This document shows, piece by piece, positions 2,975-22,400 of a DNA stretch of 22,400 nucleotides. Origin of the DNA: Thermodesulfovibrionales bacterium (lineage in GTDB: Bacteria > Nitrospirota > Thermodesulfovibrionia > Thermodesulfovibrionales > UBA6898); assembly GCA_044450345.1 (NCBI GenBank), contig JBIOIY010000049.1:1-22400 (forward strand), read 5' to 3'. The notes beneath the pieces were generated by a model that ran no database searches, was not told where the DNA came from, and worked only from the letters and a program-made list of their open reading frames with translations. A program made the position numbers and the translations under genes. Every line of letters begins with the position of its first letter. Positions within the stretch are counted from its first letter, which is position 1.

Positions 2975-2980
2975 TTCTTG

Positions 2981-3211: not shown

Positions 3212-3358
3212 CTACTTTTCCGTTAGTTGCATGTAAACTAAAATCACGGCAGCAAAGGTCATAAGAACTAATGTCGCAAATCCAAGAATGTTAGAAGTTC
3301 TTCCGTTTGTATTTTTGCCCATTATTTTTTTGTTGTTGGAAATTTTGTTGTTGTTCAT
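3212..3358 (-). CDS. Possible 48-aa single-pass membrane peptide
   Basis: Hand translation MNNNKISNNKKIMGKNTNGRTSNILGFATLVLMTFAAVILVYMQLTEK. Co-oriented with neighbours, but SD spacing is poor and no family was recognised. Confidence 0.3.
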   Translation of the reverse strand: MNNNKISNNKKIMGKNTNGRTSNILGFATLVLMTFAAVILVYMQLTEK

Positions 3359-3376
3359 TCCTTATATCTCTACTGG

Positions 3377-3406
3377 AATGGGAGAAGCGAGATCACCTCT
3401 CCCATT
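3377..3406 (-). terminator. Hairpin downstream of the cupin gene
   Basis: AATGGGAGA-N12-TCTCCCATT lies just past the stop at 3414; no clear U-tract. Confidence 0.3.
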
Positions 3407-3413
3407 ACGCGCC

Positions 3414-3818: not shown

Positions 3819-3902
3819 TGTTCATACCTCCTTTTTTTTAAATAAAAACAATTATGCAGCAAATCATCTGTTAAGGGGCCGATCCCGATACTTCACTTAA
3901 TA

Positions 3903-4058
3903 TTACCTGCCAATCAGGATGAAGGCGCCGGCAGCAATAGCGAGAATATCCACCAAAGTACGTATCGTGAGAATTCCACCTCCCAGCAGACCCGTCAGGC
4001 CGATCAAGATGAGCCAGATTCCCAGCAAAAGCATTCCAATATTCTTTGTCATTGTCAT
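3903..4058 (-). CDS. Small two-TM membrane protein, 51 aa; not in ORF track
   Basis: Hand translation MTMTKNIGMLLLGIWLILIGLTGLLGGGILTIRTLVDILAIAAGAFILIGR; TAGGAGGTGA SD. Confidence 0.8.
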   Translation of the reverse strand: MTMTKNIGMLLLGIWLILIGLTGLLGGGILTIRTLVDILAIAAGAFILIGR

Positions 4059-4128
4059 GTTATTCACCTCCTAAAATAAATATATTCAGACATGTCATCT
4101 TATGTGACTCACTTACTAGAAGTACACT

Positions 4129-7522: not shown

Positions 7523-8332
7523 ATGGAGGCGACAATAAAAGATAGTGTCTTCCTGCCCTTCTTTCATTTTCTCGGCAAGAGGACAATGAACATAATCAAC
7601 AATCTTGGCGCGGTAGTCATCTTCTTGACCCTGGCCTTTCTGAAGATCTTCCGGCCTAAACAGCTTCGGGAGATTATTCAGCAGGTCTATTACATCGGCG
7701 CCAGGTCATCGACTATCGTGCTGCTCGTCGGCCTCTTCACCGGGATGGTCCTTGGCCTGCAGCTCTACTATACCCTGGTAAAATTCGGATCTCAGGGGGT
7801 CCTCGGTTCTGTCGTGGCCTTCACACTCATCAGGGAACTGGGCCCTGTCCTTACGGCGATTATGATAACCGCACGGGCGGGCTCTGCAATGACAGCCGAA
7901 ATCGGCATCCTCCGTATCTCCGAGCAAATCGACGCCCTCTATACCATGCGGATCGACCCTCAGCGGTATCTTATCAGTCCCAGGATCGCAGCCTCGATCA
8001 TCAGTTTTCCCTTGCTGACGGCCTTCTTCGATCTCATCGGAATACTCGGAGGATATCTCACGGGCGTGGTCCTCCTCGGGGTAGATAAAGGCGCCTACTT
8101 TTATCGCATCCATTCCTATGTGGAGATGGTCGACATCAGGGGCGGGTTTATCAAGTCACTCGTCTTTGCCGTGCTCGTCTCGACGATCTGCTGCTATGAG
8201 GGATATTTTACCCACCTTCGTACCGACAGCTACGGCGCAAAGAGCGTCAGTCTCTCGACCACCTCGGCAGTCGTATTATCCTGTGTCATGATCCTGATCT
8301 CAGACTACGTCGTTACCTCTTTTCTTATGTAG
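7523..8332 (+). CDS. mlaE: MlaE-family ABC permease
   Basis: GLFTGMVLGLQ, IRELGPVLTAIMITARAGSAMTAEIG, ISEQIDAL, STTSAVV. Alternative start at 7586. Confidence 0.95.
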   Translation: MEATIKDSVFLPFFHFLGKRTMNIINNLGAVVIFLTLAFLKIFRPKQLREIIQQVYYIGARSSTIVLLVGLFTGMVLGLQLYYTLVKFGSQGVLGSVVAFTLIRELGPVLTAIMITARAGSAMTAEIGILRISEQIDALYTMRIDPQRYLISPRIAASIISFPLLTAFFDLIGILGGYLTGVVLLGVDKGAYFYRIHSYVEMVDIRGGFIKSLVFAVLVSTICCYEGYFTHLRTDSYGAKSVSLSTTSAVVLSCVMILISDYVVTSFLM

Positions 8333-8340
8333 AGGACCCT

Positions 8341-9591
8341 ATGGAAACGCCATTGATAGAATTCAGAGATGTCACCAAGCGCTTTGACGAAAAGACTATT
8401 CTTGACAAGGCGAATCTCTTGATTTACGAAAACCAGATTACTACGGTCATCGGAAAGAGCGGCAGCGGCAAAAGCGTGCTTCTCAAACATATCATCGGCC
8501 TCCTCTCTCCTGATGAAGGGAGCGTACTCTTCAGGGGGAAGCCCGTGCATGAGATGAAGAAAAAGGAATGGGAGGGATACAGGAGCCAGATCAGCTACAT
8601 GTTTCAGAATAATGCCCTCTTTGATTCCATGACGGTCTTTGAAAATATAGCACTCCCGCTCAAGCAGACAACGCACCTCAGCAAAAAGGAGATCGAACAG
8701 AAGGTGATGTCACGACTCGAACAGATGGAACTCTCCGACGTTGTCAAGCAGTATCCGTCAGAGCTCTCAGGGGGGATGCAGAAGCGGGTGGCCCTGGCCC
8801 GGTCCCTCGTAACAGACCCGGCCATCGTGCTCTTCGACGAGCCGACGACAGGCCAGGACCCTATAAGGAAAAACATCATCCTGAGCATGATCGCCCATTA
8901 CAGGAAACAGTTCGGGTTTACCGCCATTCTTATCAGCCATGATATCCCCGATGTCTTCTTCATCTCTGACCGGATACTTCTCCTTTGGGAAGGGAAAATA
9001 GCTTTTAACGGGACCTATGAGGAGTTGACGAGATTTAAGCATCCCATGATCGACGAATTTCTCAGGAGCATTGATGGCCTCCGTGACGAACTCACCGGGC
9101 TTCTCTCAAAGGAGATGTTCAGGTCCCGGTATGCCATGACACTGGGCGGAGGACGTGTCGACACGACAATGACGGCAGTCGTCTTCGGCGTAAGCTTTGA
9201 CCAGATTACTGTTAAGCTCGGGGCTCAAACTGCCCTAGAGGTCCTCAAGACCCTCGGTGAGCATGTGAATGAACATTTCGGTCCACTGGGGGGATTCTCA
9301 TCCCGCCACAGGAGAGGTGAGATCCTTACGATACTGCCCCGGGTGGGTCTTGACGAAGCCGGGCAATTAGTGCATGATTTTGTCCAGAGGCTCCAGCAAA
9401 AGGCCCTTCCCGGGATCCAGGCACTTACCAGGGTCAAGACAGAAGCCGGAGAAGGTTTCGAAATATTTGTGACTGCAGGGATGACTGAGGGCAGCAGCTC
9501 CGACGACATTGATCAGATCATAGCAAAGGCTGAGGCGAATCAGAAGATAATCGCACGATACCAGTGCGGCAAGGAGGGTGCTTCAAAATGA
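8341..9591 (+). CDS. mlaF: MlaF-family ABC ATPase with C-terminal degenerate GGDEF-like domain
   Basis: Walker A GKSGSGKS, signature LSGGMQKRV, Walker B LFDEPTTG, ISHD. An extra ~170 aa starts at DELTGLL. Confidence 0.92.
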   Translation: METPLIEFRDVTKRFDEKTILDKANLLIYENQITTVIGKSGSGKSVLLKHIIGLLSPDEGSVLFRGKPVHEMKKKEWEGYRSQISYMFQNNALFDSMTVFENIALPLKQTTHLSKKEIEQKVMSRLEQMELSDVVKQYPSELSGGMQKRVALARSLVTDPAIVLFDEPTTGQDPIRKNIILSMIAHYRKQFGFTAILISHDIPDVFFISDRILLLWEGKIAFNGTYEELTRFKHPMIDEFLRSIDGLRDELTGLLSKEMFRSRYAMTLGGGRVDTTMTAVVFGVSFDQITVKLGAQTALEVLKTLGEHVNEHFGPLGGFSSRHRRGEILTILPRVGLDEAGQLVHDFVQRLQQKALPGIQALTRVKTEAGEGFEIFVTAGMTEGSSSDDIDQIIAKAEANQKIIARYQCGKEGASK

Positions 9592-10061
9592 AAAAATACT
9601 CGCTCGAAACGGTTGTCGGCATTTTTGTAGTCATCGGCCTCCTCTGCGTGGCGTACATGACAGTGAAACTCGGCAAGGTTTCACTGTTCGGGGACAACTA
9701 CTATTCACTCTATGCGCGCTTCGGTTCAGTATCGGGATTACGAGAGGGCAGCCCTATCGAGATTGACGGCATAGAGGTCGGACGGGTTGCACGACTGACC
9801 TTAGACCAGGAAAAACAGTTGCCTTTGGTTACATTGAAAATCCGGAAAGGCGTCAGGGTTTATGACGACGCCTCCGCGGCAATCAAGACTGCCGGTCTCA
9901 TCGGCGACAAGTTCGTCAAGATCGACCCGGGAGGAGGTGGTGAAGTCCTCAAGCCGGGAGGGACGATCACCGAGACTACCACCGCCGTTGATATAGAGGA
10001 ACTTATCAGTAAATATGCGTTTGGGGACATCAAAAAAGACGGTAAGAAGGAGGCCGAATGA
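9588..10061 (+). CDS. mlaD: MlaD / MCE substrate-binding protein
   Basis: AAGGAGG SD; ATGA overlap with mlaF; ETVVGIFV TM; MCE motifs SGLREGSPI...GIEVGRV and IKTAGLIGDKFV. Confidence 0.95.
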   Translation: MKKYSLETVVGIFVVIGLLCVAYMTVKLGKVSLFGDNYYSLYARFGSVSGLREGSPIEIDGIEVGRVARLTLDQEKQLPLVTLKIRKGVRVYDDASAAIKTAGLIGDKFVKIDPGGGGEVLKPGGTITETTTAVDIEELISKYAFGDIKKDGKKEAE

Positions 10062-10672
10062 GCTTTAAGGAAGAAGTCATGAAGAAATATCTTGTCAGCA
10101 TGGTCCTCATTGTTTGCCTGATTTGCCCGGTCCCGGCCCTTGCAGGTGTACCGCTTGATACCGTAAAGGGCTATGCCGACAAGGTGCTTGACGTACTGCG
10201 GGACCCGGCCCTCAAGGCTGAAGCTGCTAAGAAGACCAAAAAGGAAAAACTCCGGGCCATTTCAGAGAAGATGTTTGACTTTACCGAACTCTCCAGGAGA
10301 ACCCTGGCCAATAACTGGAAAAAGCTCAGTCCGGAGCAGCAGAAGGAATTTGTCGAGCTCTATACGTCTCTTCTCGAGGATACCTATGCAAATAAGATCC
10401 TGGCGTACAGTGATGAAAAGATCAACTTCACCAAAGAGGTTCCCCTCAGTGAAAAGACGGTTGAGGTGCAGAGCACGGTCCTGAGAACAAAGGGAGATAT
10501 CCCGATTTACTATAGGGTAATTATTAAGGACGGTTCGTGGAGGGTCTACGATGTAGTCATTGAAGGGGTAAGCCTCATCAATAACTACCGCTCTCAATTC
10601 AAAGAAATGCTCGCAAACAAACCGCCGGAGTCATTACTCGAGACCCTGAGGAAAAAGGTGGGCAAAGCCTGA
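10058..10672 (+). CDS. mlaC: MlaC/Ttg2D periplasmic lipid shuttle
   Basis: Signal peptide; FDFTELSRRTL, WRVYDVVIEGVSLINNYRSQF. Alternative start at 10079. Confidence 0.95.
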   Translation: MSFKEEVMKKYLVSMVLIVCLICPVPALAGVPLDTVKGYADKVLDVLRDPALKAEAAKKTKKEKLRAISEKMFDFTELSRRTLANNWKKLSPEQQKEFVELYTSLLEDTYANKILAYSDEKINFTKEVPLSEKTVEVQSTVLRTKGDIPIYYRVIIKDGSWRVYDVVIEGVSLINNYRSQFKEMLANKPPESLLETLRKKVGKA

Positions 10673-10950
10673 GCCATGCGTAAAGAGACCGCAAAAGAAG
10701 AAAATCCGTTAAGCTCATACATAATTTCATGCTGATCTCCGTTCTTGTGCTCTGTCCGCTCTCTCTCCGCGCAGCTACTCCTTCAACGGCCCCGACATGC
10801 TTCAAATGTAATCCTCTCATAGCGTGACAGTCATTTCGACGTGGATACCCCTGTGTGATACCTTGAAATCAAGATTTTGCAAATTGATTGGAGGGCGATG
10901 CGCAAGGAGGGCCAGAATTTCTTGCGGCCGGACGGTATAATATTCCTTTG

Positions 10951-12612
10951 ATGAATGCGAAGAAGAAAATAGTCCTTTTTGTCCTTGGCGGCGGTGCCGC
11001 AGCCCTTGTTCTGGCAGTAGTCGTTTTTGCCCTCACCTTCGACATAAATTCCTACAGGCCCCGCATCGAGGCGGTTGCCTCCAAGGCGACCGGCCTGGAG
11101 GTCAGAATCAAAGGGAAGATGGGGCTCTCTTTTTTTCCCTTTGGCATATCGGCCAAGGACATACATGTTACCAGCAGGGGAGACGAAATCCTTTCCCTTG
11201 AGAACCTGAAGCTTGGGGCTGAGTTGATGCCCCTTCTGAAGAAGCAACTTAAAGTCACCAGTTGCGAACTCGTCAAACCGGTCGTCACCATCGTGCAAGA
11301 CGCTGAGGGAAAATATAATTTCGAAAACGCTGAAAAAAAATCCACTGAAAGGGGACCCGGAGCAGCCTTCAGTTTGAATGATCTCAAGCTGTCCAAAGGG
11401 GTAATAGTCTATCTCGACAAGAAAACGGGGGAAAAGACGGAGTTTAAGGATTTCAATCTGGCTATCAAGGACCTCTCGATAGAAGGAGACGTCATAAAGA
11501 ACGCCTCGTTCACAGGAAGTTTCGACTGCAAGGAAGTGCTGCAAAAGGACTTCAGGATCGAGAATCTCAAGGCCCCTGTGAAGGCCGTCAAGGGGATATA
11601 CCATTTGGAACCTCTTGCCATAGAGGCGCTCGTCTACCTTGACAAGAAGGCGGGTGAAAAGACCGAGTTGAAAAAAATCAATCTTGCTATCAAGGATCTT
11701 TCGGTAGTGGATACCTCAGGGGCTATTATAAAGAACATCGCCTTCACAGGAAACATGGACTGCAAGGAGGTTCGGAAAAGAGACCTCAGGCTCGACAAAG
11801 TCAAGAGTCCTATAAAAGTGGAGAAGGGAGTAATCTACCTCATGTCCCTTACCATGGATATCTTCGGCGCGAAGGCTGAGGGAGATGCCACGGCAGACAA
11901 GTCGGAAGTCGATGCTCTGTATAAAATCAATTTAAAGGTATCGAAGCTGGACTTCGAAAAACTCGAGGAGTCTTTCGGCACAAAAAAGGTTATCGGCGGG
12001 AAGGGTGATCTTTATGCTTCCCTGACGATGAAAGAAAAAGGAAATCGCAATCTGATGAGCGGCCTGGACGGTACTTTTTCTCTCCGCGGTGATAATCTCG
12101 TCATGTATACTATGGACCCCGACAAGGTCCTCTCATCGTATGAAACGAGCCAGAAGTTCAACCTCGTCGACCTCGGCGCTTTCTTCATCGCAGGCCCGCT
12201 CAGTACCGTTGCGCTCAAGGGGTACCATTATGGGGACGTTTACAACCAGACCCGGGGAGGACGGGGTGTCATCACGAAGTTCATCTCCCACTGGAAGATC
12301 AAAAACGGCGTGGCGGACGCTACGGACTGCGCCCTTGCGACGCACCATAACCGGGTCGCACTTAAAGGCAAGCTTGATCTTGTCGGCGAGCAATATGACA
12401 ATGTAATAGTGGCGCTTCTCGATGACAAGGGATGTGCAAAATTCAAACAAGGCATCAGCGGTCCCTTCGGCAATCCCAAGGTCGGCGCGGTAAGCGCGGT
12501 CGAGTCCCTTGCCGGCCCAATCTCCAATCTCTACAGAAAGGCAAAACGCTTTCTTCAAGGCGGCAAATGCGAGGTATTTTATAACGGCGCTGTGCAGCAA
12601 CCTCCAAAATGA
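10951..12612 (+). CDS. AsmA-family protein with internal tandem duplication
   Basis: N-terminal TM anchor, then FDINSYRPRIE...ATGLEVRIKG...LSFFP (AsmA N-terminus); beta-rich body; AsmA-like C-terminus (WKIKNGVA...LKGKLDL). The track start at 10888 is probably too early. Confidence 0.85.
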   Translation: MNAKKKIVLFVLGGGAAALVLAVVVFALTFDINSYRPRIEAVASKATGLEVRIKGKMGLSFFPFGISAKDIHVTSRGDEILSLENLKLGAELMPLLKKQLKVTSCELVKPVVTIVQDAEGKYNFENAEKKSTERGPGAAFSLNDLKLSKGVIVYLDKKTGEKTEFKDFNLAIKDLSIEGDVIKNASFTGSFDCKEVLQKDFRIENLKAPVKAVKGIYHLEPLAIEALVYLDKKAGEKTELKKINLAIKDLSVVDTSGAIIKNIAFTGNMDCKEVRKRDLRLDKVKSPIKVEKGVIYLMSLTMDIFGAKAEGDATADKSEVDALYKINLKVSKLDFEKLEESFGTKKVIGGKGDLYASLTMKEKGNRNLMSGLDGTFSLRGDNLVMYTMDPDKVLSSYETSQKFNLVDLGAFFIAGPLSTVALKGYHYGDVYNQTRGGRGVITKFISHWKIKNGVADATDCALATHHNRVALKGKLDLVGEQYDNVIVALLDDKGCAKFKQGISGPFGNPKVGAVSAVESLAGPISNLYRKAKRFLQGGKCEVFYNGAVQQPPK

Positions 12613-12649
12613 TTCTCTTCCGCGCCATAGGGTTGGAGTATCCCGACAC

Positions 12650-13699
12650 TCACTGAAGACCTGTCGAAATCCGTCGCTGGAGTATCACCTGGTTTTTATG
12701 CTCTTTTGTCTTGAATGTGAGGTAGTCCTTCTTGTCCAGATCGAAAAGCTGTTTCCTGTAGCGGCTCGTAAGATCATACCACTTGATGGTCCTCATGCTG
12801 AAACGACTTTCTTCGGGATAGGGCAACATATTCATGAAGGACTGGATCGCAAAATAGTACCGCACAGCATTGCGTTCAATCGCGCCGCGAGGCCCGCCGA
12901 TATAGAGGGGGTTGCCGTTTCTGTCTGTTCCGGTCACCGTGAACCCTGCCTTGCCCCAACCTAATGTCGCAAAATAGACCTTTTCCGCGAGGCGAAGTGC
13001 AACGCTGTCGCTGTATGTATAACTGACGTGGACAAAAGTCCTTCCCCCGTCAAGGGGCAGGGCCTCGAACCTCATCCTGTGGTCCTTCGTGCCGAAGGGG
13101 CCTGCATCGGCACTGAGAATGATATCCAGATACCCCTGCTGCTGATCAACGCTCCGGTAATGGTAAATGATTTGACGCGCACCTTCCGGAGGTTGATAGA
13201 CTTTGCGGCCGATGTAAAAGGTCAACAGCCATGTTCCGGGCAGTTCCCTGTATGTGCACGCCTTGACATTAGGATGGAGGGATACGATATCGCACCAGTT
13301 TGCCGGAACCTTGAGCACGTTGACAACGCTGCTGAAGGGGTAATCGAAGATCCCGTAGACATCCGCGTGCACTTTGTCGTCTCGCTCAAAAGACTCCAGA
13401 CAGAGAGGAAGGCCGAAGCTGTTTGTCTCCAATTTGGCCATGTTCCTGTGATAGGTGTCGAGCAGGATGTCTTCGCCCTGCCGGGGCTTTTCGACAGCTG
13501 AAGCGGGACCGGCGGAAAAAAAAATTGCAGCTGCAACCATGAACAGGAAGACTTTCGATAAGAGTTCACCGCGGAGGCGCAGAGAAGGCATTTGATATGA
13601 TACCCGGAATATCACTTTTGTTTTCCGCCTTCTCAGCGGAAAACAAAAAGATCTCCAACTCTGCGTCCTCTGTGTCTCTGCGGTGAAAATTTTCTTCAT
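12650..13699 (-). CDS. Hypothetical exported protein; N-terminus interrupted in frame by a palindromic element
   Basis: 349-aa ORF 18 bp downstream of the PLD gene; signal h-region FLFMVAAAIFFSAGPASA; mixed alpha/beta body. Confidence 0.8.
   Translation of the reverse strand: MKKIFTAETQRTQSWRSFCFPLRRRKTKVIFRVSYQMPSLRLRGELLSKVFLFMVAAAIFFSAGPASAVEKPRQGEDILLDTYHRNMAKLETNSFGLPLCLESFERDDKVHADVYGIFDYPFSSVVNVLKVPANWCDIVSLHPNVKACTYRELPGTWLLTFYIGRKVYQPPEGARQIIYHYRSVDQQQGYLDIILSADAGPFGTKDHRMRFEALPLDGGRTFVHVSYTYSDSVALRLAEKVYFATLGWGKAGFTVTGTDRNGNPLYIGGPRGAIERNAVRYYFAIQSFMNMLPYPEESRFSMRTIKWYDLTSRYRKQLFDLDKKDYLTFKTKEHKNQVILQRRISTGLQ
13565..13687. mobile_element. 123-bp palindromic MITE-like element
   Basis: Terminal IRs TTCACCGCGGAGGCGCAGAG / CTCTGTGTCTCTGCGGTGAA (17/20); internal perfect 13-bp stem TTTTGTTTTCCGC-N7-GCGGAAAACAAAA (13616-13648). 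Confidence 0.8.
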
Positions 13700-13717
13700 T
13701 GGGTCGACCGGGATCTT

Positions 13718-15109
13718 TTACATCCAATGGGAAAATAAGTGCGCAAAGCACTCCCTGATCCTTTGGAACAGGGGCCTCTTTTTCCACTCTTCCCATTGAA
13801 TCTGGTCGGACTCGGCAAGGTCCATGGCAAACATCTTCTCCATTTCGCCGGCAAACTCGCGACTCAGGATAACCGCATTCACCTCGTCATCGCTCAACAA
13901 GCTCCATGAGTCCATGTTGGTAGAGCCGACTGTCGACCAGACTTCGTCAATCACCGCAGTTTTTGCATGCAGCAGGGCGTTTCGGCGTTCGTATATCTTC
14001 ACCCCCGATTTTAAAAGCTCGGAATAATTGTACCTCGCCGCATATAAGGCCAGCGAAGAATCGCTGGTTGAGGGAAGAATAATCTTTACGTCAATACCGC
14101 GTCTGGCAGCATCAGTGAAGGCATCCAGTGTCTGGTCGTCGGGGATAAAATAGGCATTCGTCAGATGGACCGAATGCTCAGCAAAAGTGATGGCTGACAC
14201 ATAGACGATAAAAGTGATTCGATTGTCCTGTCCCGGAGTGCTGCCGACCACCCGCACCAGTGCGTTCCCCCCTTCTTTCAGATCAGGGAAATAGTTCCGT
14301 TCAGAAAGTTCCAGACCCTTCTGCTTCTGCCACGTATCAAGAAATAGTTTTTGCAACTCGGCGACGGCAGGGCCTTCGATTTGAACATCTGTGTCACGCC
14401 AGGGCAGCGGTGCCTTTTCGTCCTTGTCCCTGCGGAAGGGCGTGCTCGAATAGACCTTACTGATGTTGATACCCCCTGTAATGGCAACTTTGCCATCGAT
14501 GATCAAAATCTTGCGGTGGTCCGGATGCGCCAGGTGCCAATGCCCCTGGGCCTTGAACGGATTTAGCGGATTGAATTCGACCACCTGAATTCCCCCGTCC
14601 CGCAAGCGCTGAAAAAAGGGAGCCGGAGTACTGAAACTGCCGACGCTGTCAAAAATGAGATTTACCTGGACGCCCTCCGCCTGTTTCTGCAACAACAGAT
14701 CGGCAAATCTGCGGCCTGTTTCATCATCTTCGATGATAAAGGTTTCAAGGTTGATATGGTCTCTGGCATCCTGTATTGCTTTAAACATTGCGGCATAGGC
14801 GGCCTTGCCATCAACGAGCAGATTGACTTTGTTCCCTTTCGTCAGCGGGCTTTCGGTCACCGATTCCACCACGGCATTGTGGCGTTCCAAAATGTCCGTA
14901 GGGTTGACCGAGCTCTTCAGCCTTTCCATGATGGCCTTGCTCTTTTGGGAAGATAACAGTCCTGTGGACGAAACGATTTGACGAGGTTCCTCCGTAGTCG
15001 GAGCCCCATCAATAATTTCAGAGGCGTTCGGCAAGGTCGCACATCCATTGCTGAGGCTCAAGACGGATACGAACAGAAAGGATAAAAAGAAAGGCTTGGC
15101 TCTTTTCAT
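13718..15109 (-). CDS. cls: Cardiolipin synthase-type phospholipase D (ClsB-like) with predicted lipoprotein signal
   Basis: Two HKD motifs (HRKILIIDG, HAKTAVIDE); WRDTDVQIEGP, TNAYFIP, GSTNMD. Start placed at MKRAKPFF (15109); the track start is 15184. Confidence 0.9.
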   Translation of the reverse strand: MKRAKPFFLSFLFVSVLSLSNGCATLPNASEIIDGAPTTEEPRQIVSSTGLLSSQKSKAIMERLKSSVNPTDILERHNAVVESVTESPLTKGNKVNLLVDGKAAYAAMFKAIQDARDHINLETFIIEDDETGRRFADLLLQKQAEGVQVNLIFDSVGSFSTPAPFFQRLRDGGIQVVEFNPLNPFKAQGHWHLAHPDHRKILIIDGKVAITGGINISKVYSSTPFRRDKDEKAPLPWRDTDVQIEGPAVAELQKLFLDTWQKQKGLELSERNYFPDLKEGGNALVRVVGSTPGQDNRITFIVYVSAITFAEHSVHLTNAYFIPDDQTLDAFTDAARRGIDVKIILPSTSDSSLALYAARYNYSELLKSGVKIYERRNALLHAKTAVIDEVWSTVGSTNMDSWSLLSDDEVNAVILSREFAGEMEKMFAMDLAESDQIQWEEWKKRPLFQRIRECFAHLFSHWM

Positions 15110-15263
15110 GATCTCGTCATTAACTTTAGCACGAAAACAAAATTTTGGCTTAAGGACCATGTCTATCGGGTTTCTCACCGTCATTATTAGTTGGCGGACA
15201 CTGAGACTACAGTGAGCATAATTCTCTGATTATGTCGTGACATCACTTGAGACAAATCTATTT

Positions 15264-15272
15264 TGTTATAAT
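15264..15272 (+). promoter_or_regulatory. Extended -10 promoter
   Basis: Perfect TGtTATAAT, 7 nt before the ATG at 15280. Confidence 0.65.
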
Positions 15273-15279
15273 AGTCACT

Positions 15280-16404
15280 ATGGCCGGCATAGACATTATT
15301 GCTGTGGAAGGGGGATCAAAATTAAAGGACTTCATTGACCTTCCATGGAAGATCTATGCTGAGTACCCCCGCTGGGTTCCCCCAATTAAGAAAGAGGTCC
15401 GCCGGATGCTGGACCCACACAAGCACCCTTTCTGGGAGTTTTCCGAACGCATCCTCTTTCTGGCCCGGCGTGGTTCAAAGACGGTGGGAAGGATCGCGGG
15501 CATCATAGATCGTCGTAATAACGAGTTCCACAACGAAAAGATGGGCATTTGGGGATTCTTCGAATGTGCCGACGATGCGGAGGCCGCAACGGCCCTCTTC
15601 TCTTCCGTTGAGACGTGGGTCCGCCAGAAGGGGATGACCTTCCTAAGAGGTCCGCTCAACCCTTCGATGAATAACGAGTCGGGACTGCTTATCGAGGGGT
15701 TCGATTATCCACCTGCTGTGTCGATGACTTACAATCCACCGTATTACCTCAGGCTGATCGAATCGTGCGGCTTCACCAAAGAGAAAGACCTGCTCGCCTT
15801 TCTGCTGGATGGAGGCGATTACCGGCTGCCTGATTGGATGGACCGTCTCGCCGGACGGACCGCCCAAAAAAAAGGTGTCCGCATCAGGCACGTTGATCCG
15901 AAGAATCGGGATGCCGAGTTCGCCCTGATCAGGGAGATCTACAATGATTCCTGGTCCGGCAACTGGGGTTTCGTCCCCCTGACGGAAAATGAGATGAAGG
16001 ACATTCAAAAAAGTGTGAAGCCCTTCGCGGACCCGGACCTCGTGTTCTTCATCTACTATGAGGATGAGCCGGCGGCGGTCTGCGTGATCTTTCCTGATAT
16101 CAATCCTTTGCTCAAACGCCTCAACGGCAGGATAGGCCTGCTCGGTCTGTTCAAGGCGCTCATCTATCGGCGGGAGATCAACGGATTGCGGTTGGTGATG
16201 TTCGGAATCAGGGAGAAGTATCGACAACTGGGGCTTCCCATGTTGGCGTTCCGCCACATCTATAAGATTGCGAGGGGGAAAAAGGACTATCAGCATCTGG
16301 AGATGGGCTGGACCCTGGAGGACAATGAGTCGATCAACGCATTGATAGGGGAAGCCGGCGCAAGAATGTACAAGAAATATCGCATATTCAGAAAGTCGTT
16401 ATAA
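15280..16404 (+). CDS. Tandem-GNAT N-acyltransferase, YghO/bacterial ceramide synthase (bCerS)-like
   Basis: FIDLPWKIY...WVPP, VGRIAGI, GFFEC, GPLNPSMNNESGLLIEGF, YNPPYY, WSGNWGFVP, EMGWTLEDN, YKKYRIF. Family recognised from memory, not by search. Confidence 0.75.
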   Translation: MAGIDIIAVEGGSKLKDFIDLPWKIYAEYPRWVPPIKKEVRRMLDPHKHPFWEFSERILFLARRGSKTVGRIAGIIDRRNNEFHNEKMGIWGFFECADDAEAATALFSSVETWVRQKGMTFLRGPLNPSMNNESGLLIEGFDYPPAVSMTYNPPYYLRLIESCGFTKEKDLLAFLLDGGDYRLPDWMDRLAGRTAQKKGVRIRHVDPKNRDAEFALIREIYNDSWSGNWGFVPLTENEMKDIQKSVKPFADPDLVFFIYYEDEPAAVCVIFPDINPLLKRLNGRIGLLGLFKALIYRREINGLRLVMFGIREKYRQLGLPMLAFRHIYKIARGKKDYQHLEMGWTLEDNESINALIGEAGARMYKKYRIFRKSL

Positions 16405-16407
16405 TCT

Positions 16408-17244
16408 ATGAATTTGAAATTAACTAAACGAGTATATAGAGCGTGTCTCCTCGCGGCAGTGATAGTACTGACCGGGGTTGCGGCAGGTTGCGCCCACAGG
16501 CTCTACGCTCCGATGCAACCAACTGGCTGGAGTGCCCAGCCTATCGTGAGCATGTGCCGCTTTGCCCCTGACGCCGACCTGGACCCTGCCACCGGAACGC
16601 CGGCCGGGGACGAAGGGTATTACCTTTATATCCTGACTGAAGCTGCCAATTGGGACTTCAGCTATGCGCCGGGGCTTCTCTTTTCAATTTGGCGTCAGCC
16701 GTGGGCGCATAGTTGGATCATCCTCGAAAGTCCCGGGGATCGTCTGGAATTCGGCCACACCGGCGACTTCGGTCTGGAGAAACCGCGTTACCATCTGGGC
16801 GTGATACAGAGAATTCGGGAGGGAGACCCCAATCCTATCGCTTATTTGTGGCAGACGATGTCCGACGGCGAATTCCAGATCGGCAAGCCCCCTCGCCCGC
16901 CCACATTCGTCTGGAAAATGCCGATTACACAGCGACGGTATCAGCTGATATATGAATACGCGATGCACCGGAAGTATGACCAGTTCGGATTGAGGAGCAA
17001 CAATTGCACAGACATGGTGGCGGAGATAGCTGCGATGGCGGGCATCAACCTGGTCCACCGCATTCGCCTTTCCCTGCCGCCTGAGACAAAGTTCTTGGGC
17101 AAGAAGGCGCGTATCTGGACGGACCCACAATACCGCATACTGGAGTTCAGTACCCCAGAAGTTCTTGAGGTGGACCTGCGGCAGCTTGCCCGGATGGGAA
17201 TCGGGAGTGATGTCACCGAGTGGTATCTGGCTTTGCAACACTGA
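16408..17244 (+). CDS. Hypothetical lipoprotein, probable circularly permuted papain-like (NlpC/P60) enzyme
   Basis: Lipobox VAAG-C; AHSWIIL precedes FGLRSNNCTD (His before Cys); starts 3 bp after the GNAT stop. Confidence 0.7.
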   Translation: MNLKLTKRVYRACLLAAVIVLTGVAAGCAHRLYAPMQPTGWSAQPIVSMCRFAPDADLDPATGTPAGDEGYYLYILTEAANWDFSYAPGLLFSIWRQPWAHSWIILESPGDRLEFGHTGDFGLEKPRYHLGVIQRIREGDPNPIAYLWQTMSDGEFQIGKPPRPPTFVWKMPITQRRYQLIYEYAMHRKYDQFGLRSNNCTDMVAEIAAMAGINLVHRIRLSLPPETKFLGKKARIWTDPQYRILEFSTPEVLEVDLRQLARMGIGSDVTEWYLALQH

Positions 17245-17354
17245 AGATCGCTCGTTTGTTTGGCCGTATCGGGCTGGATTGATCCACCCGGCGAATGACT
17301 GTAAAATTTCTGTCAAAAGGTTAATGTATACCATTGAAGCATAGGTCTGACATA

Positions 17355-20300
17355 TTGGCTAAGCATAGGGACGACATCATTGCTTTTGTCTGGCGGCCCG
17401 AGGAGGTCATCCCACCTGTGATCCGGATGGCTCACAGAACAGGGAGCAGGGCCATCTTCGACTTTTCCTCGATGGGGGCGGAAGAGTTGCGTTCTTTCTT
17501 ACGAAAGGCCGACCCTGCCGGCCACGTCAGGGATATCAAGATTTCTGCCCCTGCCTTGATCGATCCATCTTTTGGGCGGCTCCTTCAGGAAACAGGGATC
17601 CAGGACATCTGGGTAGAATGCCACCCCCTGTTTTTCGGGGAGGATACCGCCCCCGTTCTCCAGAGATTGAGGGAATTGTCGCAAACCCACCGTTGCTTTC
17701 CGATCGTCGGGGACCTGGATCTTCTCACCACGATTTTGAAGGACAGCCCGGGAATCGGGCGCATCGTATTGAAAGGATGCGAGGCATCCGGATTCGTGAG
17801 CGGTGAGACGACCCTAGTTCTTTATTCGGCTCTCAAGGAAATGCTGCGTACCATCTCGAAGTCTCTGGACATCCTCATCTGGGGCGGCATCTGCACCCCT
17901 GAGGCGGCAGCGGCATTCCTGTCCACGGGGGCCACCGGGATCGTCTTTGAGAGCGTCCATTGGCTGACAGATCTGGTTGCCATTGATCACCTACAGCGGC
18001 GGCGGCTCGCCGGACTTCGCATGGATTCTACCGATCTGGTTGGCCTGGACCTGCAGGTCCCTTGCCGCCTTTTCAACAAGGGGAACTCGCTTGCGTTCAG
18101 GGAGATCAAGACGTTCGAGAACTCGCTGTGCGGAGCAGAGATCACGGAGGAAAGCCGCCGTTCCTTCATAAGCCAACTGCATGCCAGGGCCATCCACCCT
18201 CTCAACAGCCGTTTTAGCCAGGACGAGGTCATCCCTCTGGGTGTGGAGGCCGCCTTTGCTGCGTCCTTCGTTGAGCGTTTTGGGGCTGGAACCGGGGAGG
18301 CCGTGCAAGCCTTCATGGAGGAGATTCGAAACGTATGCCGCTCGGCTGAGGGGAAAAGGGATTGTTTTTTGGACAGCACTGTAGCCAGAGAGATGGGAAC
18401 CATGTATCCCTTTATCCAGGGCGCCATGTCCTCCATCACGGATGTCCCCGAATTTGCCTCAAAGGTGGCCGATGCCGGTGGACTGCCCACTATCGCCCTT
18501 GGCCTGATGGACGATGAGGCCCTTGACCGGAGGCTGGAACGTTTGCCTGAGATCATGGGAGGGCGCCCTTATGCTGTGAATGTCGTTTCTTTGGCAGAGA
18601 ACCCTTTGCGGGGGACGCATCTCGCCTGGATAAAGAAACACAGACCCCGCTTTGTGGTGATCGCAGGGGGTGACATCTCCCCCTTAAGAGAATTGGTAGA
18701 ATGCGGCATGGAGGTCATCTATATCGCTCCTGATGAGACCCTGATGAGGCTCGCCCTTGAAGCCGGCGCCGGGTACGTAGTCTGCGAGGGGTATGAGGCC
18801 GGGGGCCACGTCGGGCGACAGAGCACGCTCACCTTTGCTCAAACGGTGCTGGATCTGAAACGGCGCAAGCCGTCCCTCTTCCACGACCGCCGCGTGATCC
18901 TTGCAGGGGGGATCTTCAATCGGGAGACAGCATTCATAGCTACCATGCTCGGCGCGGACGCCATCCAGATGGGCACCACCTATCTGGCCACCCGGGAGAT
19001 CGTCGAGACCGGTGCCCTGTCGGCGCTCTATCAGCGGATGATCCTGGAATCGCCTCCGGGGGGAACCATCATTTCAGGCCAGGGCACCGGACTTCGGGTG
19101 CGCTCCCTGAGGACCCCGAAAATGGCATCTCTACTCTCCCTGGAGAGGGAGTTTGCAGCGGGCCGCCAGGACGAGCCTTCCTTCCGGGCGAAAATAGAAG
19201 AGATGTCCGCAGGGAGCCTCTTTGCCGCGGCCCGAGGGCTGGACAAGCCGGGAGGGGCGCCTCTTGATGAGCGGGCCTGTCTGCAACGCGGGCAATTCAT
19301 GAGCGGGGCATGCGCCGGCCTCATCGGTCGGGTCCGGACGCTGCGGTCATTTCACCGCGAGCTTGCCGAAGGACCTCTTTTGCTGCATCAGCCTTTTGTA
19401 GAAACCCCATCCTCGCAAGTTGGCCACAGCCTCACCCGGGTCGCCCCGTATAAAGTCTCTCATGAGAGGATTGCCATCACAGGGATGAGCATTGTCAATG
19501 CCTTGGGGAATAGCCCGGAGGAGGTCTGGGCCGCAAGCCTGGCAATGAAGAGCGGGATTACATTGGTTCCGCCTTCCCGATGGGACCACGGGCGTTTTTA
19601 TGATCCCCGGCCGCATGTTCCGGACAAGACCTACTGCCGGGTGGGCGCCTTCCAGGATTTTCATATTTCCCGCAATGATCTCGGGATCTCCCCGCAGGAT
19701 TTCCGGACCATGACCAAGGCCACAAAGATCACGCTATGGCTGGCAGAGAGGGCCATCCGGGCCTCGGGCATCCTGGAGTCGGACATCCCGCGCGAGCGAA
19801 TCGGGGTCCTCATCTCTCAGAACTCGGGAGAGGCGGCGGGAACACTTTCCAATATTCACATCAGGGCGTACGTTCACGACATCCTCGCCGACATCAAGAA
19901 GGCCGTTCACCTTACGCCGAATCAGTTGAGCGCCATCGAACAGGTGGTGAAGTCCGGTCGCATGGCCCCGGACGACACCACACTCCTCGGCAGACTCAAC
20001 TGCGCGGCGGCTGGTTTCATCTGCAACCGGTATGGGTTCATGGGGCCAAGCTTTGCGGTCTCCGCAGCCTGCGCGACCGCGCTGGTCGCACTGCACAGCG
20101 CCATTCAGATGGTCCGGAACGGCATCATCGATGCTGCCATTGTGGGAGGGGCCGAAGAGGACCTTACACACCTGCATTTTCTGGAATTCTCCGCACTCGG
20201 TGCACTTTTTGGACTGTCCGGACAGGAAAGACCCCCTCGCGAGACCTCCCGTCCCTTCGATGCCGAACGAGACGGCATGGTGCTCGGCGAAGGCGGGGGA

Positions 20301-22400
20301 ATGATCGTCATCGAGCGGGAAAGCCTGGCACGCGCAAGAGGGGCGCTTGTCCAAGCAGTCATCACCGGCATGGGGGCGAGCAACAACCATATGGGTATGG
20401 TGGAGTCCTCCAGTGTCAGCCAGGAAATGGCCATCCGCGCCTCTTTCCACGGGATACCCTACGGGCCTGATGCGGTGGACCTCGTGGAATGCCACGCCAC
20501 GAGCACGCGGCAAGGGGACGTGGAGGAGATACGTGCCCTGAAGGCCGTCTTCGATTCCTCAAGGCGCACGGTGATTACCTCATTCAAATCCCAGATCGGA
20601 CACACACTGGGCGCCTCGGGTATTAATAGTCTTATTCGGGGGGTCACGGCTATGAAGTCTGAGGTTTTCCCTGCCACCCTCAATTATATGCATCCGGACC
20701 CGGAAATCGACTTAAAGGGATCGGGTCTCCTCATCACCCAGGAGCCGATTGATTGGAAGTGCGGGGCCGGCCAGCCGAGGAGGCTTCAGGTCAACGCATT
20801 CGGGTTCGGAGGTTCCAACTACGTTGTACAGGTGGAGCAGGCCATGGATGAAGTGGATACGGTCCTGGTCTCCCCGGAAAGAGAATACGGTTTCGACAAG
20901 GAACCCGATCTCCGTAGAAAGAAGGGGGGTGGCTCTCCGACGCTCCAGGGCATCTCTTTCTTCCGGACTGAGATCGACGGCAAGAACTGCCGGATGGCCG
21001 TCGTGGCTCAATCCGAAGAGGAGGCGCTCACGGTCATCGAGAGGTCGGCAGCCCTTGCTGAAGCCGGGACCGCTTCACCCAAAGTATTGAGGTCCCTGGC
21101 GCAGCAGGGGATTTTTGCGAGCAGCGAGGACCTGCCGGCACGACCGCTAGCCTTTGTTTTTCCCGGACAGGGGGCACAGTATGGAGGAATGGGACGGGAT
21201 CTCTACGAGTCCTTCCCCGTCATTAAGGAGTGGATGGATCGGGCTGCAGCTGCAGCTGACTTCGACCTCCTTCACTTATTGTTCCACGATCGGGAGGATA
21301 ATCTTGCGAAAACCCGGTGGCAGCAACCAGCCATGTTCGCCATTGAACACGCCATGGCCCGATACCTCACCACCCTGGGCATCCACCCCATGGCGATGGC
21401 CGGCCATAGTTTGGGCGAACTGACCGCCCTGTGTCTGGCCGGTGTCTATTCCCCAGAGGACGGGTTTCGAATCGTGAACAAGAGGGCCCTCTGCATGGAC
21501 AAAGCCGCTGCCGTGCACGTTGAACCGGGCGTTATGATGGCCGTGGATGTCCCCCTGGATCTGATTAAAGAGATGATCCATGGACTGGAGAATGTCCACA
21601 TCGGCAATATCAATTCACCGCACCAGGTTGTCCTGAGTGGCAATACCGAGGCGGTCAAGGATCTTTGTAAAAAAATAAAGGGAATGGGATACCGGGCCAC
21701 CCTTTTGCCGGTCAGCATGGCTTTCCACTCTCCTATCATGAGGGTCATCCATGATGAGCTCGCGGCGTACATTGCCTCCATACCATTTCATTCCCCGCAG
21801 ATTCCCGTCATCTCCAACACGACCATGGCACCGTATCCATCAGATCCCAATGAGATCAGGCGAATCCTGATGGCCCATCTGGAATCTACCGTCCATTGGA
21901 TAAACAATGTCCGGACCCTTTGGAATGACTACGGAGTCCGGCTCTTCGTTGAGGTGGGCCCCGGTGATATTTTAAGCAATCTCATCGCAGACACGCTTCC
22001 TGAACCGGCTTGCATCCAGACGTGCCTTCCCTCTGCAGAGGGCCTGACCTACAAGACCGCTCTTGCTCAGCTCTTCGTCGAAGGTTATTTTGAGATACAA
22101 GGAGAACTGAGGTTTGTTTCCCTCTCTGCATTCAGGAAGGCCCCTGCATCGGGCCGCAACACCCTGGACGTAGTGGTCTCCCCTGCCCCCTCCGAGACGT
22201 CTGAGCATCAGCACCATATAGAGGCGCTTGTTCAAATCATCATGGGCGCTACAGGATTTAACAGGGATGAAATCCGGCCTGATATGGATCTCAGAAGGGA
22301 CCTCTCCATCCGCTCCAGCCGTCTCCCGATAATCATGGATGCAGCGGAACGCCATTTCGGGATCACCATCGAACTGGAGGATTTTATAGGTCTCCGCACC
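17355..22400 (+). CDS. Type I PKS/FAS, Pfa-like: FabK-type ER x2, KS, AT, ACP; 3' end lies beyond the window; not in ORF track
   Basis: All motifs are in one frame with no stop seen. ER2: YPFIQGAM, EGYEAGGH, LAGGI. KS from 19464: ERIAITGM, SAACAT (Cys 20070), ECHATST, KSQIGH. AT: FPGQGAQ, GHSLG (21402), MAFHS. ACP-like region from about 22215. Start uncertain (TTG 17334/17355 or GTG 17418). Confidence 0.93.
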   Translation, partial: MAKHRDDIIAFVWRPEEVIPPVIRMAHRTGSRAIFDFSSMGAEELRSFLRKADPAGHVRDIKISAPALIDPSFGRLLQETGIQDIWVECHPLFFGEDTAPVLQRLRELSQTHRCFPIVGDLDLLTTILKDSPGIGRIVLKGCEASGFVSGETTLVLYSALKEMLRTISKSLDILIWGGICTPEAAAAFLSTGATGIVFESVHWLTDLVAIDHLQRRRLAGLRMDSTDLVGLDLQVPCRLFNKGNSLAFREIKTFENSLCGAEITEESRRSFISQLHARAIHPLNSRFSQDEVIPLGVEAAFAASFVERFGAGTGEAVQAFMEEIRNVCRSAEGKRDCFLDSTVAREMGTMYPFIQGAMSSITDVPEFASKVADAGGLPTIALGLMDDEALDRRLERLPEIMGGRPYAVNVVSLAENPLRGTHLAWIKKHRPRFVVIAGGDISPLRELVECGMEVIYIAPDETLMRLALEAGAGYVVCEGYEAGGHVGRQSTLTFAQTVLDLKRRKPSLFHDRRVILAGGIFNRETAFIATMLGADAIQMGTTYLATREIVETGALSALYQRMILESPPGGTIISGQGTGLRVRSLRTPKMASLLSLEREFAAGRQDEPSFRAKIEEMSAGSLFAAARGLDKPGGAPLDERACLQRGQFMSGACAGLIGRVRTLRSFHRELAEGPLLLHQPFVETPSSQVGHSLTRVAPYKVSHERIAITGMSIVNALGNSPEEVWAASLAMKSGITLVPPSRWDHGRFYDPRPHVPDKTYCRVGAFQDFHISRNDLGISPQDFRTMTKATKITLWLAERAIRASGILESDIPRERIGVLISQNSGEAAGTLSNIHIRAYVHDILADIKKAVHLTPNQLSAIEQVVKSGRMAPDDTTLLGRLNCAAAGFICNRYGFMGPSFAVSAACATALVALHSAIQMVRNGIIDAAIVGGAEEDLTHLHFLEFSALGALFGLSGQERPPRETSRPFDAERDGMVLGEGGGMIVIERESLARARGALVQAVITGMGASNNHMGMVESSSVSQEMAIRASFHGIPYGPDAVDLVECHATSTRQGDVEEIRALKAVFDSSRRTVITSFKSQIGHTLGASGINSLIRGVTAMKSEVFPATLNYMHPDPEIDLKGSGLLITQEPIDWKCGAGQPRRLQVNAFGFGGSNYVVQVEQAMDEVDTVLVSPEREYGFDKEPDLRRKKGGGSPTLQGISFFRTEIDGKNCRMAVVAQSEEEALTVIERSAALAEAGTASPKVLRSLAQQGIFASSEDLPARPLAFVFPGQGAQYGGMGRDLYESFPVIKEWMDRAAAAADFDLLHLLFHDREDNLAKTRWQQPAMFAIEHAMARYLTTLGIHPMAMAGHSLGELTALCLAGVYSPEDGFRIVNKRALCMDKAAAVHVEPGVMMAVDVPLDLIKEMIHGLENVHIGNINSPHQVVLSGNTEAVKDLCKKIKGMGYRATLLPVSMAFHSPIMRVIHDELAAYIASIPFHSPQIPVISNTTMAPYPSDPNEIRRILMAHLESTVHWINNVRTLWNDYGVRLFVEVGPGDILSNLIADTLPEPACIQTCLPSAEGLTYKTALAQLFVEGYFEIQGELRFVSLSAFRKAPASGRNTLDVVVSPAPSETSEHQHHIEALVQIIMGATGFNRDEIRPDMDLRRDLSIRSSRLPIIMDAAERHFGITIELEDFIGLRT

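Follow-up and report, generated by a model that had tools for sequence, protein, structure and literature searches.

Do a giant multidomain synthase, an N-acyltransferase, several exported proteins and a set of lipid transport genes, lying side by side in a bacterial genome, make and export one unusual membrane lipid? The question is raised by 22,400 nucleotides (nt) of DNA from a Thermodesulfovibrionales bacterium (hereafter the window), which are the entire contig JBIOIY010000049.1, or C49, of a genome of 3.19 Mb in 86 contigs, given as 91% complete. An earlier reading made from the letters alone (the sequence-only reading) had proposed such a system for ten consecutive genes, with a polyketide synthase (PKS) and a GNAT-type N-acyltransferase producing a sphingolipid-like lipid and a dedicated Mla/AsmA set delivering it.

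Our analysis divides the locus in two. Part A, from 15.2 kb to the window end with its continuation on another contig (C15), holds the PKS, the GNAT (P0002) and a papain-like lipoprotein (P0003), which synteny across many loci identifies, as had been proposed, as one conserved module. Taken as a whole we read it, with a probability of roughly 55%, as an accessory module that gives a ceramide-type pathway a privately made acyl chain. Part B, at 7.5-15.2 kb, holds the Mla and AsmA-like genes, a phospholipase D (PLD) gene and an exported protein (P0001). The sequence-only reading is thus partly supported: the conserved association holds for the Part A genes, but not for the Part B genes as their conserved partners. 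Below, G000 is the source genome, other G numbers are comparison genomes, C numbers are contigs and L numbers are fetched loci; the coordinates of all genes are given in Table 1.

A synthase completed on a second contig

The synthase reading frame is cut by the window end. At 100% identity, the window's final 141 nt recur at the end of contig C15, with agreeing reading frames, and beyond this join C15 carries an acyl carrier protein (ACP), ketoreductase (KR) and dehydratase (DH) stretch of 906 amino acids (aa), a phosphopantetheinyl transferase (PPTase), a FemAB-like protein of GNAT fold, an ABC ATPase and an ABC-2 permease. The order GNAT-P3-PKS-PPT-FemAB-ABC-ABC2 (P3 being P0003) is contiguous in G034 and G024, and for this reason we regard the join as supported. 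The sequence-only reading had suggested looking further downstream for a KR, a DH and a PPTase, all of which were found on C15, and for an MMPL transporter; the exporter that travels with the module is neither MMPL nor Mla but of the ABC-2 type (19 of 32 loci).

Full-length relatives of the synthase have 2536-2749 aa. The closest has 2648 aa and the order pseudoER-ER-KS-AT-ACPx2-KR-DH (ER, enoyl reductase; KS, ketosynthase; AT, acyltransferase), in which DH corresponds to the N-terminal half of a PKS dehydratase. A naive join of the two contigs gives 2548 aa, and therefore one ACP repeat has probably collapsed. The N-terminal 350 aa of the synthase (window 17334-18383) are a degenerate duplicate of the FabK-type ER that follows, with 27% identity over 133 residues (E 5e-5) and with EASGF in place of the EAGGH of the ER. 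This pseudo-ER part is a separate open reading frame (ORF) of about 266 aa in six related loci. Domain scans of the synthase recovered the ER, the KS, the AT, two ACPs, the KR and the DH, and no thioesterase or reductase domain for release.

The order KS-AT-tandem ACP-KR-DH, with a PPTase directly after the synthase, is that of PfaA, as described in the available part of Shulse and Allen 2011 (PMC3098273), and the NCBIfam model omega_3_PfaA is among the best for this protein. This raises the question of whether the synthase is a Pfa-type 'secondary lipid' synthase making polyunsaturated fatty acids or olefin precursors. The model score, however, is 350.5 bits, far under the cut-off of 1010, two ER-type domains are fused in, and the genes conserved alongside are those of a ceramide-type GNAT and CerR. 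Neither PfaB nor PfaC (KS-CLF, FabA-type DH/isomerase) was seen among the genes of the window, of C15 or of the conserved neighbour clusters of 80 related loci. A polyunsaturated fatty acid or olefin synthase was rejected on the latter ground, and we consider such a product very improbable.

The FemAB-like protein of C15 shows weak similarity to the families FemAB_like, ATE_C and Acetyltransf_6 (E 9e-6 to 3e-4); its best match among PDB sequences has E 0.19, and it has no detectable similarity to P0002. Further on, downstream of the ABC-2 permease (L003, G000:C15, 7248-13208), lie two B12-binding radical SAM enzymes, a DUF4833 protein, a 224-aa unknown protein and a GH43 glycosidase, along with some unrelated genes. 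In 15 related loci, B12-radical SAM genes also come immediately before the GNAT. Enzymes of this kind may modify the alkyl chain.

Conservation and spread of the module

We compared 80 loci encoding P0002 relatives, with 10 kb on each side, by tblastn and ORF clustering; 61 of them, in which the GNAT is at least 65% identical, form the P0002-type subset, and all denominators refer to loci with enough flank. The synthase is directly downstream of the P0002-type GNAT in every one of 49 loci. A PPTase is near the module in 30 of 32 loci, an ABC ATPase in 19 and a FemAB-like gene in 12, and the P0003 lipoprotein is part of the module in 22 of 49. P0003 and the FemAB-like gene tend to travel together: of 32 loci, 11 have the pair, 2 have a single one of them and 19 have none.

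The neighbours of the module elsewhere fit the sphingolipid-like product that had been suggested. A CerR-like gene is upstream of the P0002-type GNAT in 23 of 51 loci, and a Spt-like gene accompanies it in 6 of 51. The order CerR>Spt>GNAT1> <x GNAT2>P3>PKS>PPT was read in L022 and L061 and partly in L017, and two loci from metagenome-assembled genomes (MAGs) labelled Geobacter, L043 and L049, have CerR>Spt><PAP2 GNAT>P3>PKS>PPT; CerR>Spt thus comes directly before the module in L022, L043, L049 and L061. L049 continues with FemAB, and the gene-order row of L043 ends without it, yet tblastn gives a match there. Recurring neighbours among the 80 loci are B12-radical SAM genes (15), PAP2 (5), diacylglycerol (DAG)-kinase-like genes (3) and sulfotransferases (3). 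On the complete chromosome of G061 the cluster reads CerR>GNAT>PKS>PPT>ABC>ABC-2><, and it ends in a 1193-aa fusion of AMP-binding, ACP and oxoamine synthase (AOS) parts (L106, G061:C1, 15388-18969). Judged from its sequence, this one protein seems to unite the functions of AasR, AcpR and Spt. In G062 and G065 an AOS lies in long open frames (1199 and 1154 aa), as far from the GNAT as in G061.

Co-occurrence was followed in 61 genomes of the same order, G000 included, which are related by kinship. Three of these, G004, G035 and G034, are the same records as the loci L012, L027 and L081, and only the downstream half of the G034 contig is independent. A GNAT match is found in 56 of the 61 genomes, mostly at 34-41% identity, which is the range of a second copy in G000, on contig C52. 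The P0002 type itself (81-91% identical) is confined to five of them, G000, G004, G024, G034 and G035, and P0003 to exactly the same five. This patchy presence within the order, together with about 70-85% identity to copies in MAGs labelled as other phyla, suggests horizontal spread. The module is common, and its loci come from MAGs labelled with many phyla. We thus think that the Part A module has probably been spread by horizontal transfer.

P0002 and the ceramide N-acyltransferases

A tblastn search of plasmid records, with the paralogue of P0002 as query, led to YghO of E. coli, to which P0002 is 33% identical over its full length (384 columns, E 1e-67). In the part of PMC9386255 available to us, yghO (ECD_02850) and Caulobacter CC_1154 are given as the gene ('aca') for the N-acyltransferase that acts in dihydroceramide synthesis. 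The neighbours of YghO in E. coli are genes for an AOS, an ACP, a NAD-epimerase and a fatty acyl-AMP ligase (FAAL). In the E. coli plasmid record NZ_MG591698.1 (L104, 1-10116) the yghO cluster is also flanked by genes annotated as LptF and LptG permeases and as 'lipopolysaccharide biosynthesis protein'; here, too, ceramide-type genes have transport genes as neighbours.

P0002 has more than 3900 homologues, the best 120 of them at 77-93% identity. The few that are named carry the source labels Deltaproteobacteria, Thermodesulfovibrionales, Thermodesulfobacteriota, Nitrospirae and Thioalkalivibrio. Some close homologues carry a precomputed PF13480, and the nearest Atlas clusters have PF00583 in 39-84% of their members; Atlas searches gave little beyond 'N-acetyltransferase' for P0002, and its best PDB sequence match has E 1.6.

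The sequence-only reading had also suggested a search for a pyridoxal-phosphate-dependent AOS/SPT enzyme and a reductase. Both have counterparts in the genome, away from the locus, in an operon on C52 that encodes a CerR-like NAD-epimerase, a Spt-like oxoamine synthase and a 366-aa GNAT. The Spt-like protein scores highest with the serine palmitoyltransferase model NF047600 (590.6 bits; cut-off 640), and P0002 and the C52 GNAT share 36% identity (E 4e-88). In a quick maximum-likelihood tree, with SH-aLRT as its only support measure, the PKS-linked GNATs form one clade of 55 rows (SH-aLRT 97), and the Spt-adjacent GNATs, including the C52 copy, fall outside it. The synthase is next door in 48 of the 55 rows; six of the other seven have too little downstream sequence, and the seventh (L069) has a synthase downstream. 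By homology and phylogeny, P0002 is a member of the YghO/bCerS family of ceramide N-acyltransferases, in a distinct PKS-linked subfamily.

A possible route to a ceramide-type lipid

The module is seen at the level of gene content, homology, folds, synteny and co-occurrence, and it is from these that we infer every chemical step that follows, what the product is and what Part B carries. The single iterative synthase of 2.5-2.7 thousand aa, activated by its own PPTase, would build a saturated, probably long chain on its ACPs, and the P0002 GNAT would release this chain from the ACP in forming an amide with a sphingoid base. This base would be made by a Spt-type oxoamine synthase and reduced by a CerR-type reductase, encoded in this genome on C52 and elsewhere beside the module, or it would be provided by a FAAL-ACP-AOS fusion. 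The resulting lipid could then be tailored by the cytoplasmic FemAB-like enzyme and, outside the cytoplasm, by the LRAT/PLAAT-like lipoprotein, and be exported by the ABC-2 transporter. Part B, which co-travels loosely in this bacterial family, would most likely move the lipid across the periplasm or alter its head group. We favour the GNAT as the enzyme that offloads the chain to the amide position because it is the only invariant neighbour of a synthase devoid of a release domain, and because the AOS is self-loaded in some clusters; in G061 the base has its own loading system (AMP-binding/ACP/AOS), which would leave the PKS chain for the GNAT.

Several points weigh against this reading of Part A. 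The join of C49 and C15 is based on a 141-nt overlap within the repeated ACP region, plus synteny. The homology of P0002 to the characterised Caulobacter enzyme runs through E. coli YghO only, and P0002 itself matches no Pfam or NCBIfam model. The organism is represented by a MAG alone, and the ceramide-type product is a predicted lipid. Spt and CerR are away from this locus and already have their own GNAT on C52, so that Part A could use another acceptor. Finally, the choice of the GNAT rather than Spt for offloading is drawn from adjacency only, and in Pseudomonas SgaAB, according to the accessible part of PMC12134224, the PKS feeds the AOS.

The last of these points leads to an alternative in which the PKS acyl-ACP is condensed with serine or alanine by Spt into an unusually long sphingoid base, and the GNAT adds an ordinary acyl-CoA chain. 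The same part of PMC12134224 reports that the iterative PKS SgaA and the AOS SgaB make C24-C28 sphinganines, and the available part of PMC9386255 that rhodobacterial SPTs favour acyl-ACP over acyl-CoA; Spt-like genes are found within 10 kb in 10 of the 80 loci. However, it is the GNAT and not Spt that is invariably next to the synthase (49/49 against 6/51 loci), the AOS of G061 is fused to its own AMP-ligase and ACP, with similarly long AOS frames in G062 and G065, and the Spt of this genome sits in the separate C52 operon with its own GNAT. We regard feeding of Spt by the PKS as unlikely.

In another alternative, Part A would make a non-sphingoid N-acyl lipid independently of Spt and CerR. 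Such a lipid might be an N-acyl amino acid, or a lipoamino acid to which the FemAB-like enzyme adds a further aminoacyl group. The position of Spt and CerR away from this locus would fit such a product, as would the weak family similarities of the FemAB-like protein and the fact that the subtype with both lipoprotein and FemAB-like gene (11 of 32 loci) often has no adjacent CerR. On the other hand, this very subtype is directly behind CerR>Spt in L022, L043, L049 and L061, the GNAT is a full-length YghO homologue, and the PAP2 (sphingomyelin-synthase-like PAP2_C), DAG-kinase-like and sulfotransferase neighbours fit ceramide head-group chemistry. A product of this type seems to us distinctly unlikely.

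The lipoprotein P0003

None of the 583 homologues of P0003 is assigned to a family, and a deep search returned 246 cluster representatives at E <= 0.001. Across 56 diverse sequences H101, W103, G116, P143, G154 and C200 are invariant, and H117 is conserved in at least 90%. The AF2 model of the protein has a pLDDT of 94.6. Its best VIA-align match is TseH (6v98; Z 12.3, rmsd 4.0, 141 residues), followed at Z 5.1-8.3 by YiiX, a cysteine peptidase, a deSUMOylase, the MARTX RID acyltransferase domain, Aichivirus 2A (5.9), PLAAT4 (5.6) and CLN5. We take TseH, YiiX, RID, Aichivirus 2A, PLAAT4 and the other matches to be permuted papain-like enzymes, several of them lipid acyltransferases. Foldseek gave no match for the model at E <= 0.001, no curated Pfam or NCBIfam family (LRAT, NLPC_P60) was matched, and the best PDB match of the family profile has E 0.39. 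Judged by its predicted structure, P0003 is a lipoprotein with a permuted papain-like (NlpC/P60, LRAT/PLAAT-like) fold, in agreement with the papain-like character first ascribed to it. With LRAT, PLAAT (H-rev107), the picornavirus 2A H-box-NC proteins and TseH the model shares the fold and the His...His...Cys order (H101, H117, C200); it differs from them in having no sequence-family match and in being a lipoprotein of about 280 aa with extra elements.

The neighbouring transport genes

Whether the window Mla operon is the only, housekeeping one had been raised as a check by the sequence-only reading. Four MlaE/MlaD sets are present in the genome, and on C17 MlaA stands beside a complete MlaEFDC with a normal 248-aa MlaF; the window set is for this reason an extra, non-housekeeping paralogue. 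Its MlaE is 56% identical to the C17 copy beside MlaA. MlaE, MlaF, MlaD and MlaC were all recognised in the window set by Pfam and NCBIfam, and neither MlaA nor MlaB was found among the window ORFs scanned against Pfam, no genome-wide search for MlaB having been made. MlaF has about 170 extra C-terminal aa (window 9088-9591), with a weak GGDEF-like match at residues 248-397 that is below the cut-off (E 1.4e-4 in the whole protein, 0.0084 for the extension alone). This extension is conserved at 56-90% identity in 8 of the 61 genomes of the order, G000 included.

Is this set part of the module? Among the 38 P0002-type loci with at least 8 kb of upstream sequence, Mla is upstream of the module in two (L012 and L023), AsmA in two, the P0001 type in four and Cls in eight. 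Since Mla is upstream in just two loci, we place Part B outside the conserved module, and the Mla, AsmA, PLD and exported proteins do not hold up as its conserved partners. Within the order the association is closer. The extended MlaF is present in all five module genomes and in 3 of the 56 others, and an AsmA orthologue (at least 70% identical) in 4 of the 5 and 3 of the 56, or 7 of the 61 in total with G000 counted. Mla and the module are linked in three layouts: Mla lies upstream of the module in G000 and G004, on the same strand, and in L023, on the opposite one; in G034 it directly follows ABC-2. The dedicated Mla/AsmA delivery that had been proposed thus finds support in an enrichment with the module inside one bacterial family, but not beyond it, and Part B adjoins Part A only within this family (2/38 loci overall).

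The 917 homologues of P0001 are typically of 309 aa, and no Pfam family is assigned to any of them. The AF2 model of P0001 has 176 PDB matches by Foldseek at E <= 0.001 (best 3.3e-5); the matches listed are mostly Bet v 1/PR-10, PYL, START (including the CERT START domain) and cyclase structures, with TM scores by target of 0.33-0.68. The model is moderate overall (pLDDT 72.7, pTM 0.73), with means of 78-91 for 10-residue blocks over residues 71-190, and an Atlas search added a weak SRPBCC lead. Its START/Bet v 1 fold, as modelled, together with a signal peptide, makes P0001 a candidate periplasmic lipid binder or carrier. A paralogue, 40% identical, lies between two DedA/VTT-domain genes in L093 (G000:C1, 6296-7195), also near an RND pump with its outer-membrane factor. 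A further, distant P0001-like gene (35-38% identity, in two tblastn pieces) stands between mlaC and asmA in L095 (G004:C4, 7329-8215) and is absent from the window. In the G004 record mlaE, mlaF, mlaC and cls are likewise each in two tblastn pieces, perhaps through assembly errors.

ClsA carries N-terminal transmembrane helices. The PLD enzyme of the window, which has two PLDc_2 stretches and scores 304.3 against a cut-off of 290 with the cardiolipin synthase model TIGR04265, has an N-terminus that reads as a signal peptide followed by a Cys, which makes the suggested PLD lipoprotein plausible. Two further PLD/Cls paralogues are on C24 and C46, three in the genome in all. For this enzyme and for P0003 we only infer possible head-group or lipid-modifying roles.

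One might speculate that the set with extended MlaF, joined by the AsmA-like and START-fold proteins, forms a dedicated route by which a ceramide-type lipid leaves the inner membrane for the outer one, with the PLD and LRAT-like lipoproteins remodelling the lipid in the periplasm; we consider this rather doubtful. Several observations weigh against assigning Part B to this lipid: Part B is not beside the module in 36 of the 38 loci, among the 5 module genomes just 3 have the P0001 type (at least 60% identical), as do 6 of the 56 others, and the extended-MlaF set occurs without the module in G010 and G031, both given as 100% complete. The P0001 model, built from 14 sequences, is of middling confidence at its pLDDT of 72.7. 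The related genomes are also kin, so that counts overstate independence, and because of this kinship, with about 3-4 lineages involved, a dedicated role of the Mla set is possible rather than demonstrated.

Alternatively, Part B could be an independent paralogue for envelope-lipid homeostasis (phospholipid, cardiolipin or hopanoid), standing beside Part A by chance in a few relatives, and we give this close to an even chance. It would agree with the two loci of 38 each for Mla and AsmA upstream, with the layout rSAM>P1>MlaEFDC><AsmA of G010 (P1 being P0001), which has no module, and with the four MlaE/MlaD sets and three Cls paralogues of the genome. The best NCBIfam model of the window MlaC is HpnM (98.4 bits, against a cut-off of 160), and a squalene-hopene cyclase is encoded in the genome. 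An independent paralogue would accord less well with the presence of the extended MlaF in 5/5 module genomes against 3/56 others with a linkage that recurs in three different arrangements, and with the location of the canonical MlaA-MlaEFDC on C17. Hopanoid cargo, to which the HpnM score had drawn attention, is less likely: the hopanoid-type region of G000:C2 (about 198-208 kb), with a squalene-hopene cyclase (a 677-aa frame), a HpnA-like epimerase and a radical SAM gene, has its own MlaC/HpnM-like gene, about 7 kb from the cyclase.

Relation to known systems

The ceramide pathway and PKS-fed sphingolipids are already known; the combination of a PfaA-like synthase with a bCerS-subfamily GNAT, an LRAT-like lipoprotein, a FemAB-like enzyme and an ABC-2 transporter was not found in the literature searched. 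No paper describing the module came up in the library searched, and subscription journals and supplements may hold more. What this window adds is the linked extra set of Mla, AsmA, START-fold and PLD genes beside the module.

With the (dihydro)ceramide pathway known from Caulobacter crescentus and E. coli B (Spt, AcpR, AasR, CerR (epi) and bCerS (aca; CC_1154/YghO)) the module clusters share the YghO-homologous GNAT and the CerR-like and Spt-like genes, and in some of them FAAL-ACP-AOS fusions stand in for AasR, AcpR and Spt. They differ from it in that their GNAT belongs to a distinct, highly conserved subfamily, about 70-90% identical among MAGs of different phylum labels, and always has a giant synthase after it. 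The PPTase, the ABC-2 exporter, the LRAT-like lipoprotein and the FemAB-like enzyme are additions of the module, none of which is in the described pathway.

PfSgaAB of Pseudomonas fluorescens MYb115, as far as the accessible part of PMC12134224 describes it, resembles the module in having a private iterative synthase tied to sphingolipid-type chemistry. The fixed partner of the module synthase, in contrast, is an N-acyltransferase and not an AOS, and the synthase is PfaA-like, with tandem ACPs and FabK-type ERs; its carriers are mostly MAGs labelled Thermodesulfobacteriota, Nitrospirota and Acidobacteriota. With the Pfa-type synthases, in the available part of PMC3098273, the module synthase shares the KS-AT-ACPn-KR-DH backbone, an ER of the PfaD/FabK kind and an adjacent PPTase. 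It departs from them in having all activities on one polypeptide, a degenerate N-terminal ER duplicate and no PfaB or PfaC, and none of the Pfa cluster types A-T, within that part of the paper, is described with the module layout or a GNAT partner. Compared with the Mla (MlaFEDB-MlaC-MlaA) and AsmA systems, the window set has MlaE, MlaF, MlaD and MlaC in the usual order, then an AsmA-family protein, but no MlaA at the locus, no MlaB seen, a MlaF longer by about 170 aa, and an exported START-fold protein and a PLD lipoprotein in its company.

Sphingolipid-type lipids are abundant in oxygen-free waters and sediments, and their makers and pathways are only partly known (PMC11334938). If our reading of Part A is true, it would explain how anaerobes equip ceramides with unusual, privately synthesised chains, and it names in the GNAT a concrete candidate for the enzyme of chain release. 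According to the part of PMC11087976 available, bacterial sphingolipids still have no identified flippase or transporter. The dedicated route, if true, would be the first such transporter, and Part B would offer, in this bacterial family, a candidate answer to how bacteria carry sphingolipids to the outer membrane.

Other features of the window

All ten consecutive genes from 7.5 kb onwards were recovered as ORFs where they had been described (Table 1). Eight of them are lipid-related, as had been claimed, by Pfam and NCBIfam profile matches and, for the GNAT, by YghO homology. P0001, P0002 and P0003 had no family match in the Pfam and NCBIfam scans of the window ORFs. The other two genes encode the uncharacterised exported proteins that had been announced, P0001 with a signal peptide ending in ASA and P0003 with a lipoprotein signal ending in AAGC (these, and the signal peptide of the PLD protein, were read by eye).

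Table 1. Genes of the locus in the window, with strand and supporting evidence
Feature	Position	Strand	Evidence and remarks
Sigma-54-dependent response regulator	5577..7124	-	Pfam Sigma54_activat E 7.9e-70, Response_reg, HTH_8; divergent from mlaE
MlaE permease	7523..8332	+	Pfam MlaE E 8.4e-75; TIGR00056 236.9 vs cut-off 212.2
MlaF-like ABC ATPase, 416 aa	8341..9591	+	ABC_tran E 9.1e-36
MlaD (MCE) subunit	9564..10061	+	Pfam MlaD E 6.7e-20; TIGR04430 145.7 bits vs cut-off 135
MlaC-family periplasmic lipid-binding protein	10058..10672	+	Pfam MlaC E 1e-48
AsmA-like protein with N-terminal membrane anchor	10888..12612	+	Pfam AsmA E 1.7e-32; probable start 10951
P0001, exported protein of predicted START/Bet v 1 (SRPBCC) fold, 349 aa	12650..13699	-	probable start 13594
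PLD-superfamily cardiolipin-synthase-like enzyme	13718..15184	-	PLDc_2 x2 E 1.7e-43; probable start 15109
P0002, YghO/bCerS-family N-acyltransferase (GNAT), 385 aa	15247..16404	+	YghO homology; probable start 15280
P0003, lipoprotein of predicted permuted papain-like fold, 278 aa	16408..17244	+	predicted structure
Type I synthase, first 1689 aa, open-ended	17334..22400+	+	NMO/ER, KS E 1.9e-49, AT E 4.5e-46, ACP start

A scan for the sigma-54 promoter consensus gave 8 matches against 10.2 expected, none of them between the genes of the locus. Scans for sigma-70 promoters and for terminators showed no excess over shuffled sequence, and an Rfam scan of the window found no family at the gathering score. 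The sigma-54-dependent regulator belongs to the context of the locus and is a possible candidate for its regulation; an 82% identical copy is in the same place in G004, a genome of the same genus. Further upstream (window 851-5217) are genes for an OmpA-family protein with DUF4398, an ABM monooxygenase and a cupin, and a 362-aa ORF without a family; in other loci, genes for BON-domain and OmpA-VWA proteins are found repeatedly upstream of the GNAT.

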